A stretch of 64,000 bases of DNA from an uncultured Bifidobacteriaceae bacterium (GCA_964536285.1 CAZHXG010000006.1:2303-66302), one strand, 5' to 3'; shown: positions 50,099 to 52,685, counted from the first letter of the stretch. A program made the numbers and translations. The notes: generated from the letters alone by a model not told the origin.

Positions 50099-51495
50099 AA
50101 TTTTTTCAGCTTCGGTCCCTTTGGTGTGTCTTCGATTGTCCAGCCTTTCGATTTTAATTCAATCCGAATTTCATCCGCGCGTTTGAAATCTTTTGCCTTT
50201 TTTGCAGCGGTGCGCTTATCGGCAAGCGCGGAAATTTCGGCGGGAATTTCTGCTTCGGTTTTTACGCCAACACCAAGAACGGAATCAAAATTCTCCCAAG
50301 TTCCTAGTGCAATTGCCGCGCGTTCGGGAGTGAGTGTGTTTTTGGCTAGTCTGTTGTTTATTTCACGAACCCAATCAAATACGCACGCCCATGCTTCAGA
50401 TATGTTGAGGTCATCATTTAAGGCATTTACAAACGGTGTAATCGAAAATGGATCGCCTGCAAATCCCGTTTGAGAACCAGATAGCTCACGCAGCTTGCCA
50501 ACGCATTCGTCAATCCGTGCGAGAGCCGTTCGCGCACCGTTCAAGCCGTCGAGCGTGAAATTAAAGGTTTCACGATAATGCGCCGTGAGAAGCAGGTAAC
50601 GAATTTCGCGTCCGGTGAAACCTTTGGCCAATAAATCGCGCAGCGTGAAAAAATTTCCGAGCGACTTGCTCATTTTTTTTCCTTCGACCAAAAGATGCGC
50701 GCCGTGCATCCAATGTTTCACGAACGGTTTTTGCGTCGCGCCTTCGCTTTGGGCGATTTCGTCTTCGTGATGCGGGAAAATCAAATCCTCGCCGCCGAGG
50801 TGCAGATCGAAACTCGCGCCGAGGATTTTCATGCTCATCGCGCTGCACTCGATGTGCCAGCCGGGCCGGCCTTCGCCGAACGGACTGGGCCAGAAAATCT
50901 CGCCGTCGTCGGGCGCGCGTGATTTCCAGAGCGCGAAGTCGGCGATGGATTCCTTGGCGTATTCGTCGCTCTTGACGCGTTCGCCGGCGCGCATCTCGTC
51001 GAAATTCAATTTCAGCAACTGGCCGTAATTACAACCGCAGCCGCGATATTTTTCGATGGAGAAATAAACCGAGCCATCGCTCGCTTTGTAGGCGATGCCG
51101 CGCGCGATGAGTTTTTCGATGAGCGAAATAATTTCAGGGATGTGCTCGGTAGCGCGCGGGATTTGATGCGGTGAAAGGCAGTTCAGCGTTTTCAGGTCGT
51201 CGAAAAATGCGGCTTCAAATTTTCCGGTGAATTCCGGCAGCGTGGTTTTTGTTTCGCGAACGCGCTTGATGATTTTGTCCTCGATGTCCGTGATGTTCAT
51301 GACGTGCGTGACCTGGAAATTTTTGAATTCCAGATAACGCCGCACCAAATCCGCGAAGACGAACGTGCGCCAGTTGCCGATGTGCGCGAAGTCGTAGACG
51401 GTCGGCCCGCAGCAATACATGCCGACTTTTGGCAGGGCGAGCGGCGCGAATTCCTGGACGGAGCGCGACAGTGTGTTGAACAGTTTCAAAGCCAT
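50095..51495 (-). CDS. cysS: Cysteine-tRNA ligase
   Basis: CGPTVYD.AHIGN, PGWHIECSAM, GGEDLIFPHHEDE, KMSKSLGNF. Confidence 0.98.
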   Translation of the reverse strand: MALKLFNTLSRSVQEFAPLALPKVGMYCCGPTVYDFAHIGNWRTFVFADLVRRYLEFKNFQVTHVMNITDIEDKIIKRVRETKTTLPEFTGKFEAAFFDDLKTLNCLSPHQIPRATEHIPEIISLIEKLIARGIAYKASDGSVYFSIEKYRGCGCNYGQLLKLNFDEMRAGERVKSDEYAKESIADFALWKSRAPDDGEIFWPSPFGEGRPGWHIECSAMSMKILGASFDLHLGGEDLIFPHHEDEIAQSEGATQKPFVKHWMHGAHLLVEGKKMSKSLGNFFTLRDLLAKGFTGREIRYLLLTAHYRETFNFTLDGLNGARTALARIDECVGKLRELSGSQTGFAGDPFSITPFVNALNDDLNISEAWACVFDWVREINNRLAKNTLTPERAAIALGTWENFDSVLGVGVKTEAEIPAEISALADKRTAAKKAKDFKRADEIRIELKSKGWTIEDTPKGPKLKKL

Positions 51496-51518
51496 TTGCG
51501 TCCGCGCAAGTTAAGGCG
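51467..51518. repeat. Direct repeat copy A: cysS -10 box, leader and first codons
   Basis: 47 of 52 nt identical to 52605-52656; weaker similarity extends over about 51446-51531. Confidence 0.9.
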
Positions 51519-51628
51519 CGGCACGGGAAAGCTAAAGTGGAAATTTATTTCAGTTCGAGTTGTCGGCAATTGTTTTTGCCGTTTCCCAATTACGTTTGAA
51601 CTTGAAAAGGCAGGGAAAACCAACGAAC

Positions 51629-52633
51629 TCACGGCTTCAAAGAAGCGGTGTAGGCTGCCAGCGACAACATGTCGCCATCCGTAAGCTTCGCCACGGTGTG
51701 TTTCATGAGGACGCTGCCGATCCCAGCCCGGCTGCCATTTCTAAAATCATAAAGCTGGCGGAAAATGTAGCTGGGTGAGCGCCCCGCGATTCCGGGGATT
51801 GTCACAGTTCCCTTCAGATCGGGCCCGTGGCAGGTTCGACACTGAATCGTCTTGTCGCCGCGCCCGGTGATGGCAAGGGTTTGACCTGCCTGAACGCTGC
51901 CAACCGGCACATACGCGATGAACCGGGAGTGCGTGTCACGGTGTTCAAACTGTTCCAGATCTTCCGGCACTTCGATAATGCGCTGGCCGATCGGTTCGGT
52001 GTCGCCGGTGTTCACGGCGGCCAGAAACCATCCGGCGACATAACTTTTAGGAACGGTATTGGTTTCAATGACCCGGATAAGTTGTTTCGGTTTTAATGCG
52101 GAAAAATAGGTGGCCGCAGCGGCGACCTCGTCGTCGGTGACAGCTTTGGCAAGTGAGGTCATTGCTTGCGGCGGAAGTCTTTGCGGCACCGAAGTCTTCC
52201 GGGCACCGCTTTTGAAATCGGCCATCTGCTGGATGATGTAGGCCGCAGGCAGGCCAGCGAGGCTCGAATTTTCGGGGCCGCCCGGTCCATCGGCCCGATG
52301 ACAGAAGCCGCAAGCATAAACACCGGGCTTGCGGCCGTGCATCACGACGTCGGGCATGGGGGCATGATCTTCGGGATGCCAGTCCGGTGCCATGAAGAGA
52401 TCACGCAATTGGCCAAGACTGTAAGCGGCATTGCTATCCGGAACATGTTTCAGTTTGCCATCGTCGGTGGCCGGTTTGAAATCCGGCGGATTCACCGGAT
52501 AAGCCCACGCTGGCGGTTCTCTTTGGCTTTGCGCAGTTGCGTCTGCCGCCCGGACCGGTGCGGACACCATCATGAGCAACAATGCGAATTTCCGGCTGGG
52601 GCGGGACAGCGTGTTGAACAGTTTTAGAGCCAT
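51629..52633 (-). CDS. Periplasmic di-haem c-type cytochrome (c4-like) with cysS-derived N-terminus
   Basis: CGFCH and CRTCH haem motifs, each followed by a Met in a helix (PPQAM, SVLM); N-terminus MALKLFNTLSR identical to CysS. Confidence 0.88.
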   Translation of the reverse strand: MALKLFNTLSRPSRKFALLLMMVSAPVRAADATAQSQREPPAWAYPVNPPDFKPATDDGKLKHVPDSNAAYSLGQLRDLFMAPDWHPEDHAPMPDVVMHGRKPGVYACGFCHRADGPGGPENSSLAGLPAAYIIQQMADFKSGARKTSVPQRLPPQAMTSLAKAVTDDEVAAAATYFSALKPKQLIRVIETNTVPKSYVAGWFLAAVNTGDTEPIGQRIIEVPEDLEQFEHRDTHSRFIAYVPVGSVQAGQTLAITGRGDKTIQCRTCHGPDLKGTVTIPGIAGRSPSYIFRQLYDFRNGSRAGIGSVLMKHTVAKLTDGDMLSLAAYTASLKP

Positions 52634-52656
52634 TTGCGTCTGCGCAAATTAAGGCG
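52605..52656. repeat. Direct repeat copy B at the start of the cytochrome gene
   Basis: See copy A; offset 1138 bp. Confidence 0.9.
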
Positions 52657-52685
52657 GGAGCGGCGGAAAGAAAAGAGAAACAGAT

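Follow-up and report, generated by a model that had tools for sequence, protein, structure and literature searches.

In the 64,000-nucleotide stretch of DNA from an uncultured bacterium analysed here (GCA_964536285.1, CAZHXG010000006.1:2303-66302; hereafter the window), the cysteine--tRNA ligase gene cysS is preceded by a di-haem cytochrome c gene, cyt, that begins with a second copy of the cysS 5' end. We consider it highly probable that cyt is a chimeric gene, in which a cytochrome c4-like protein has captured the promoter-like region, the start codon and about 16 codons of cysS, and that the two copies of this 5' module recombine with each other. In the proposed scheme, ~105 nt from the start of cysS, comprising the promoter-like region, an 11-12 nt leader that lacks a Shine-Dalgarno (SD) site and the first ~16 codons, would have been duplicated and joined in frame to a c4-like di-haem cytochrome gene at 8-11 nt of microhomology. 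The joined piece would have replaced the ribosome-binding site and the first three codons (MKT) of the cytochrome, leaving cysS intact behind the second module copy, and the borrowed peptide would then have been adapted into the n-region of a signal peptide. The gene order on the minus strand is mem - cyt - cysS - tmk, where mem encodes a predicted membrane protein and tmk a thymidylate kinase, and the lineage bearing the chimera belongs to the uncultured Verrucomicrobiota. Loci, contigs and proteins of relatives are referred to below by our L and P numbers.

A repeat search recovered a direct repeat of 73 nt at 51446-51518 and 52584-52656, with 62 of 73 positions identical (85%) and a spacing of 1138 nt, in agreement with a first-pass annotation that had reported a repeat at the starts of cyt and cysS; both genes lie on the minus strand. 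In each of them the repeat runs from 23 nt ahead of the ATG to coding nucleotide 50. For the interval from -19 to +33, where an identity of 47/52 had been given, we count 46/52. The 27-nt core of the repeat occurs exactly twice in the window, against zero occurrences expected from 100 shuffles, and weaker homology of the two modules reaches approximately -57. In relatives the modules are alignable from about -57 to +50, with the consensus AAATAAATTTC-CCTTTWGCTTTCG-N10-GCGCTTTAACTTGCGCGCTGCCA-ATG. The encoded start peptides are MALKLFNTLSRPSRKFA for cyt and MALKLFNTLSRSVQEFA for cysS. Codons 1-11 of the two genes differ at four nucleotides in three codons (CTA/TTG, ACG/ACA and TCC/TCG), and all of these differences are synonymous, as first noticed. 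The suggested search for other carriers of a start of the MALKLFNTLSR type returned only cyt and cysS, both in the window and in the fetched loci of relatives.

Comparison of homologues shows that the transfer of the module proceeded from cysS to the cytochrome. The start M[AGS]L[KR]LFNTLSR is present in the cysS genes of all relatives, including those without a cytochrome nearby, and the more general form M-x-L-[KR]-L-F-N-T-L-S-R in all 115 closest cysteinyl-tRNA synthetases (CysRS) with a locatable start, as well as in distant phyla. No cytochrome or membrane-protein gene precedes cysS in the GTDB representative genomes, whose nearest cysS is 61-77% identical and which were used for the direction of transfer only. 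Among the 120 best cytochrome homologues, the cysS-like start is confined to the closest ones, at least 21 clusters as matched by pattern, which are 76-100% identical and mostly 334 aa long; the starts of P0020, P0022 and P0026 look like degenerate versions of it. Cytochrome homologues at or below 75% identity are ~322 aa long and have ordinary signal peptides, such as MKTFAALLMLALASALA (MKTFAALL type), and the four nearest native cytochrome loci carry a GAGGAGG site 5' of the start codon (the 5' flank of L089 is cut by the contig end). The N-terminus is therefore foreign to the more distant cytochromes, which have an SD site and a signal peptide of their own, as had been anticipated. Since this start is native to CysRS and missing from distant cytochromes, the copy in cyt is the derived one.

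Alignment with native homologues places the fusion, previously sought near codon 17, at codons 16-19, within a microhomology of 8-11 nt, (A)TTCGCG-CGCT, between cysS codons 16-19 and native cyt codons 4-7. The native genes L133 and L141 read caGAGGAGGacgtgcg ATG AAG ACA TTC GCG GYG CTT CTA ATG at this place, and L089, in which the 5' flank is missing, has the same sequence from the ATG onwards. The corresponding segment is CAG GAA TTC GCG CCG CTC in cysS and RAA TTC GCG xxG CTT CTC ATG ATG in the chimeras. The length gap between chimeric and native proteins (334 - 322 = 12 residues) equals 16 - 4, so that a join inside the microhomology accounts for exactly 12 extra residues in the chimera. 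In exchange for a strong SD site and the codons MKT, the cytochrome gained the cysS upstream region, the SD-less leader of 11-12 nt and 15-16 cysS codons.

Judged by hand, residues 1-29 of cyt show the anatomy of a Sec type I signal peptide with a positive n-region, a hydrophobic core and small residues at -3/-1. Residues 1-16 originate from cysS and include the n-region MALKLFNTLSRPSRK (net charge +4 over residues 1-16). The h-region FALLLMMVSAPV (mean Kyte-Doolittle value 2.3) is homologous to that of the native cytochromes, and is followed by the c-region V-R-A and then ADATAQ; the site is V-R-A/A in the window and A-L-A/A in most orthologues. The h-region, this site and the mature c4-like domain are thus of cytochrome origin. 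We infer that residues 1-15 provide the n-region for a Sec signal peptide in which h-region and cleavage site come from the cytochrome, and that the protein would be exported and both haems attached in the periplasm. The gain of basic residues, described initially for the window's gene, proved to be general. At position 15, 114 of 115 CysRS have E or D, as compared with 13 of the 21 chimeras with K and only 3 with E, and the net charge of residues 1-16 rises from +1 (114/115 CysRS) to between +2 and +6 (19/21 chimeras). Such a gain of charge (E15K) would be expected of a borrowed peptide that fits a Sec n-region. A downstream start at the internal MMVSAP, named in the first-pass annotation as a possible refutation, is excluded by several orthologues that have no Met before the hydrophobic region: L161, L087, L164 and P0005 lack any Met between the MALK start and the mature protein. 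Because of this lack, and because a start at Met21 of the window's gene would leave a 9-residue uncharged leader, the captured ATG is the start; the frame of the 16 cysS-derived codons is kept in all chimeras.

The di-haem nature of cyt was borne out by its two CxxCH motifs (CGFCH, aa 108-112, and CRTCH, aa 265-269) and by matches to PF00034 (40.2 bits, cutoff 21.3) and PF13442 (28.5 bits, cutoff 27). Like the di-haem proteins of the cytochrome c4 type (PDB 6q2u and 1etp, and the TsdB-like 5lo9; E 2e-15 to 1e-12), it consists of two class I cytochrome c domains with one CxxCH each, and a periplasmic location would be expected as for cytochrome c4. Unlike classical c4 it is ~130 residues longer, with a conserved PPAWAYPVNPPDF after the signal peptide. 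No curated functional family, such as PdsA or QcrC, could be assigned, the best NCBIfam scores being 29 and 24 bits against cutoffs of 330 and 200. The donor gene is intact: cysS matches the TIGR00435 equivalog at 470 bits (cutoff 340) and PF01406 at E 2e-110, and has both class I motifs, HIGN (aa 38-41) and KMSKS (aa 274-278). The features of the locus are listed in Table 1.

Table 1. Features of the mem-cyt-cysS-tmk locus in window coordinates.
Feature	Position	Strand	Basis or remark
Left module copy: promoter-like region, SD-less short leader, cyt codons 1-16/17	52584..52690	(-)	Repeat; spacer orthology
Right module copy: promoter-like region, leader, first 16-17 codons of cysS	51446..51552	(-)	Repeat
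cyt-cysS spacer, cytochrome 3' flank	51553..51628	(-)	Would travel with the cassette
Fusion junction, codons 16-20 (F-A-L-L-L)	52574..52588	(-)	Microhomology (A)TTCGCG-CGCT, with its first A cysS codons 15-19 and native cyt codons 3-7
Predicted Sec signal peptide, residues 1-29	52547..52633	(-)	Features judged by hand
cyt CxxCH motifs	52298-52312 and 51827-51841	(-)	Motif location
mem, predicted membrane protein, 256 aa, without family match	52686..53456	(-)	5' neighbour of cyt
cyt, chimeric di-haem cytochrome c gene, 334 aa	51629..52633	(-)	PF00034, PF13442, c4 structures
cysS, intact cysteine--tRNA ligase gene, 466 aa	50095..51495	(-)	TIGR00435, PF01406
tmk, thymidylate kinase gene, GTG start	49439..50098	(-)	cysS-tmk syntenic in all relatives

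The 334-aa chimera is found directly 5' of cysS in the window and in L081, L082, L161 (474 kb), L163, L168, L171, L172 and the P0003 contig (126 kb). In each of the seven contigs with the 334-aa form that extend as far as the gene downstream of it, that gene is cysS. The 5' context of the module varies among genomes: some have mem at a distance of 52 nt, some have mem separated from it by 1.2-1.4 kb of inserted unrelated sequence, and in others there is a trypsin-like gene or still other genes. A sister form of 328 aa (L087:1811-2797; L164:798-1784, equal to L165) keeps the module and MALKLFNSLSRS and then continues directly into the h-region, with six junction residues deleted. It resides in other contexts with no cysS nearby (a GH43-like gene is the neighbour in L164), from which we conclude that the chimeric unit was relocated at least once. 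The cytochromes of the window, L081 and L084 have an identical start of 24 residues. On this distribution the chimera is an old, fixed gene of a clade rather than a new event in this genome.

Several further observations were made on the relatives. In L084:2600-3950, L161:4800-5950, L082:1-3950 and L171:1-3880 the DNA beyond approximately -50 of the left module is hypervariable despite near-identical cytochromes; L082 and L084, for example, are 97% identical from -49 on and have no homology before -49. The left edge of the module looks like a hotspot of insertion or rearrangement. At L166:6001-6993, in a Verrucomicrobiota metagenome-assembled genome (GCA_037141475.1), a 74%-identical cytochrome located by purD has the start (L)KSYNAPSASVRKL and no recognisable module 5' of it; the P0022 start, MKHFNSQSRSLRKF, is similar, and the L166 start looks like a degenerate remnant of the captured cysS peptide. 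L083:4001-6027 (ENA OCZU010007707.1) has two cytochromes in tandem with a period of 1133 nt and the usual cyt-cysS spacer 5' of copy 2; between -42 and the end of the contig (+896) the two copies show no difference (100% identity). This cyt-cyt tandem was considered as a product of unequal crossing-over and was set aside as evidence, being either a very recent crossover or an assembler loop. The comparison of L172 with L173 as one cassette in two contexts was likewise rejected, since a gap (N run) interrupts the L173 scaffold exactly where it matters and the two are otherwise 99% identical in their upstream DNA. In L161 (ERZ25039538 contig_3075, 474 kb) frameshifts split gltA, cysS and tmk into several called genes, which is typical of uncorrected long-read assembly errors and not of real pseudogenes. 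P0222, with a CysRS 80% identical to that of the window, is labelled 'Candidatus Aquilonibacter sp.' (Vulcanimicrobiota) and its close relatives Verrucomicrobiae; it is probably a mis-binned contig.

Relatives without the cytochrome provide a candidate empty site. In L169 the order is gltA(-), mem, cysS, tmk, with mem directly followed by cysS, which is the layout that the first-pass annotation had predicted for the ancestral state. The cysS of L169 is the closest to that of the window (~90% identical in amino acids), and this locus is also the closest at synonymous sites for mem, cysS and tmk, three of the four flanking genes (gltA does not discriminate). Its 52-nt mem-cysS spacer is orthologous to the mem-cyt spacer of the window, including the overlap with the mem stop codon. 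Correspondingly, the distal end of the window's left module overlaps the mem stop codon, and the upstream part of this module has two orthologous counterparts, the only spacer between mem and cysS in L169 and the one between mem and cyt in L168. L170 (cysS 86% identical) and the P0140 contig (83%) also lack the cytochrome.

The two modules are direct repeats ~1.1 kb apart and as such recombine. Over -60..+48, the identity of the two modules within a genome rises from 56% (L168) through 73% (window) to 84% (L163), and in L171 the modules are 100% identical over 94 nt (-56 to +38) and have a private TTGCGTGCTGCCA variant in both copies. Both paralogues show a multi-base dimorphism of the leader. 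The form GACGCAA-ATG is that of window cyt, window cysS, L168 cysS and L085 cyt, and most other copies (L081 cysS, L082, L083, L084, L163 and L161 cysS) have GCTGCCA-ATG. Taken together, the uneven divergence of the modules across genomes with one junction, the shared private variant and the leader dimorphism require gene conversion between the modules, which homogenises them in some lineages.

The modules of the window are also mosaic. In both the window and L168 the left module is of the resident promoter type AAATTAAATCTGTTTC, as in L169; the spacer and the right module's distal half agree instead with the L081/L082/L163/L161 group and show the AAATAAATTTC type. The upstream half of the right module thus matches other cytochrome-bearing genomes, and its proximal half corresponds in type to the region 5' of cysS in L168 and in two relatives without the cytochrome, L169 and L170. 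The cyt-cysS spacer carries a conserved gccgacaRctcgaa just before the right module, and the same motif precedes cysS in L081, L082, L163, L161 and L172. This mixture of types points to a cassette, composed of the cyt body, the spacer and the distal half of a promoter, situated inside a resident cysS 5' region with both boundaries within the module. The window's arrangement is probably the result of a recombination event that brought a ready-made cassette to the 5' end of cysS; alternatively, the cytochrome-less relatives may have lost the cassette by recombination between the repeats. The direct repeats probably mediate the gain or loss of the cytochrome. The similarity of the window's two copies is better explained by recombination or gene conversion, together with import of a formed cassette, than by fresh duplication.

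Sliding-window nucleotide identity over mem-cyt-cysS-tmk was too noisy for locating crossovers, and lateral exchange was assessed by counts at four-fold sites. The cytochromes are more similar than the flanking genes in three of ten genome pairs, namely window-L081 (73% versus 55%, Fisher p 0.003), window-L082 (71% versus 56%, p 0.02) and L081-L082 (79% versus 66%, p 0.02). The codon bias of cyt is weak, with an effective number of codons (ENC) of 49.5 versus 42.8-48.8 in its neighbours. The window's cytochrome protein is 90-92% identical to those of L081 and L084 and 82% to that of L168, though its left flank is of the L168/L169 type. These data suggest that the cassette may have been exchanged among lineages. 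A serious alternative is a single ancient insertion with vertical descent, in which the only later changes are losses via the repeats (in L169, L170 and the P0140 contig) and cyt is merely slower to evolve; we regard it as possible, if somewhat doubtful. Deletion between the modules would regenerate the exact structure of L169, keeping the distal left module, the module architecture is common to the window and L168, and the other seven of the ten pairs have no excess similarity of cyt. Slower evolution, however, does not readily account for an excess that is specific to the window, L081 and L082 in a gene without codon bias, nor for the affinity of the window's protein to L081 and L084 behind an L168/L169-type upstream flank, and several losses are needed because three of the nearest cysS relatives are without the cytochrome.

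Going one step beyond lateral exchange, we tentatively put forward the possibility that the cytochrome constitutes a recombinase-free, self-targeting cassette, with a cysS 5' copy on its left and a second copy dragged along on its right. Homology of ~100 nt would allow entry at the cysS 5' end of related species by RecA recombination, for example by Campbell-type integration of a circle excised between the repeats, and exit in the same way. If true, such a cassette would bring expression and translation-start signals that work in any relative, and it would explain why the cytochrome is patchily present, why the modules are mosaic and why cyt shows excess synonymous similarity in some pairs of lineages. 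Integron cassettes and small insertion elements are comparable in having one promoter-equipped gene, direct repeats, a preferred site and a patchy occurrence among close relatives. Unlike recombinase-driven cassettes, the cytochrome locus revealed no integrase, transposase, attC-like site or inverted repeats: integrase and transposase domains were absent from the scanned window genes and from the precomputed Pfam lists of neighbours in nine loci, and inverted repeats of at least 40 nt from the window. As the flanking repeats are copies of the target itself, general homologous recombination suffices.

By its position and conservation the module looks like a complete promoter with a start, and we infer that the duplicated cysS promoter would drive transcription of the cytochrome and that translation would begin at the duplicated start, which is almost leaderless. 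Should the TAAYTT box be the -10 element, the mRNA leader would measure only ~5 nt. No intrinsic terminator was found in the cyt-cysS spacer. The module could also have been retained as a regulatory element (an operator or a translational control) that couples the cytochrome to cysS expression or to cysteine supply, which we consider unlikely. The c-type cytochromes need cysteine thiols, the module is 83-94% conserved among cysS genes over -60..+48, and the leader with the first five codons stays identical where later codons have drifted, as in L163. Yet no Rfam family was matched, whether 49000-54000 was scanned with permissive E-values or the entire window at gathering thresholds, and folding around the starts was no better than in shuffled sequences (seven 54-nt segments, z -0.7 to +1.8). 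Moreover, the L168 module has diverged strongly (56% over -60..+48) and the cytochrome gene behind it is still intact, and the 328-aa clade keeps the module far from cysS. In window 51454-51507 (-) and in L169:4989-5042 base pairing is possible between the cysS leader GCGCGGACGC and codons 11-14 (GCGCUCCGUCC), which would enclose the start codon; this pairing is not significant (z -0.1 and -0.7, respectively) and is lost in the cyt copy.

The first-pass annotation interpreted the locus as a snapshot of gene birth, and took the synonymous-only differences to imply selection on the peptide or a donor cysS allele from a relative. Its core proposal, that the cytochrome captured the cysS start and that cysS kept a second copy, stands; the recency of the event is not supported. 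A recent duplication and fusion in the window's own lineage, leaving copies that are alike through youth, appears very improbable. It would fit the 85% identity of the copies, the purely synonymous changes in codons 1-11 and the absence of the cytochrome from L169, the nearest relative by flanking genes. It is contradicted by the same junction and chimeric N-terminus in 21 clusters, down to 76% cytochrome identity, by their occurrence away from cysS, by the 24-residue start that L081 and L084 have in common with the window, by a spacer and a distal right-module half of other lineages' type, and by module identities that range from 100% over -56..+38 (L171) to 56% over -60..+48 (L168) behind one common junction. 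The synonymous-only pattern follows from recombination, the same 16-residue start being present in L081 and L084 and cysS being under strong purifying selection. Hardly credible, finally, is a mis-assembly, or translation from the internal Met-Met with the cysS-like codons untranslated: a repeat-induced assembler loop is conceivable and may explain the L083 tandem, but the window's copies differ at 11 of 73 positions and the cyt-cysS order recurs in eight other independently assembled contigs (nine contigs in agreement, two of them of several hundred kb), which disposes of the assembly artefact raised earlier as a possible refutation, and the 16-codon frame is kept in all chimeras, several orthologues are without an internal Met, and the nine uncharged residues left by a Met21 start would be unable to export cytochrome c.

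Some observations weigh against the interpretation of cyt as a captured and recombining chimera. None of the native-type cytochromes nearest to the chimera (L089, L133, L141-143 and L167) adjoins cysS, and no relative was found with a native-type cyt beside cysS; the fusion may have occurred at a tandem duplication junction or when a foreign gene was inserted. Only the true donor would allow the crossovers to be placed exactly. A sigma-70 consensus scan called no promoter in either module, hence the term 'promoter' rests on position and conservation only. The empty site of L169 fits loss as well as absence, and the signal of lateral transfer is modest, with a best p of 0.003 among ten pair tests. 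All of the sequences are from uncultured organisms, and expression, start and export were read from the sequence.

Elsewhere in the locus, the GTG start of tmk and the TGA stop of cysS share four nucleotides (GTGA, window 50095-50098), and this overlap suggests that the two genes may be translationally coupled; the order cysS-tmk-DUF4404 is kept in every relative examined. A separate region of the window, 1219-2838, contains diverged internal direct repeats with units of 66 and 82 nt that are 62-76% identical and spaced by 174-183 and ~1080-1250 nt, which probably reflect a gene for a repeat-domain protein.

The kind of event proposed here is already known. Bacterial fusions at the join-points of duplications are familiar from Salmonella genetics. 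Chimeric genes formed by partial duplication or illegitimate recombination, in which the 5' part of one gene is linked across the duplication junction with the remainder of a second gene, have been reviewed (PMC3449122), and an example was described in Drosophila (PMC1463047). The present case resembles them in that cyt has a parental 5' segment and promoter joined in frame at a microhomology, with the parent intact beside the chimera. The sequence marks of a 5' capture are found, namely DNA homology that extends into the non-coding upstream region, homologues that lack the segment, an intact donor and an in-frame junction. Unlike in known chimeric genes, the donor is an essential cytoplasmic housekeeping enzyme and the borrowed peptide is now part of a putative export signal. 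It also differs in being a bacterial gene that has become fixed in a clade and is represented in many natural genomes; an origin at a duplication junction is only a possibility, as the intermediate (a native cytochrome beside cysS) was not found.

Segments shared by the 5' ends of different genes are known from several pathogens. The babA/babB genes of Helicobacter and the opa genes of Neisseria have shared 5' regions. For the Borrelia erp/ospE-F genes an upstream homology box is mentioned in two reports (PMC12018966, PMC10016077). As in the Borrelia, Helicobacter and Neisseria families, promoter, leader and signal-peptide DNA is common to different genes and appears homogenised by gene conversion. 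In those families, however, the segment has always been part of genes for secreted or surface proteins and its role is in antigenic variation, whereas the module described here derives from a tRNA synthetase, has two copies only, and gives no sign of phase or antigenic variation. What is unusual is the donor, an essential cytoplasmic aminoacyl-tRNA synthetase, and the unusually complete natural documentation.

This locus would provide an unusually clean natural example of how a bacterial gene can obtain, through one illegitimate recombination, both its expression signals and a portion of its export signal. The native form, chimera, empty site and diverged descendants are all to be found in public metagenomes. 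It suggests that the n-region of a signal peptide can be recruited from a cytoplasmic enzyme and then tuned by a few changes of charge, with the recurrent E15K as a testable adaptive step. Genome annotation may also benefit, as cysS-like N-termini on unrelated proteins would be real features and not errors in the choice of start codon. The repeats next to an essential gene form a substrate for recombination and could be used to test whether homology alone suffices to give a single gene the behaviour of a mobile cassette. Finally, the promoter, the SD-less short leader and the first codons appear to be portable as one block, and such a translation-initiation unit bears on initiation in phyla that make little use of Shine-Dalgarno sites.

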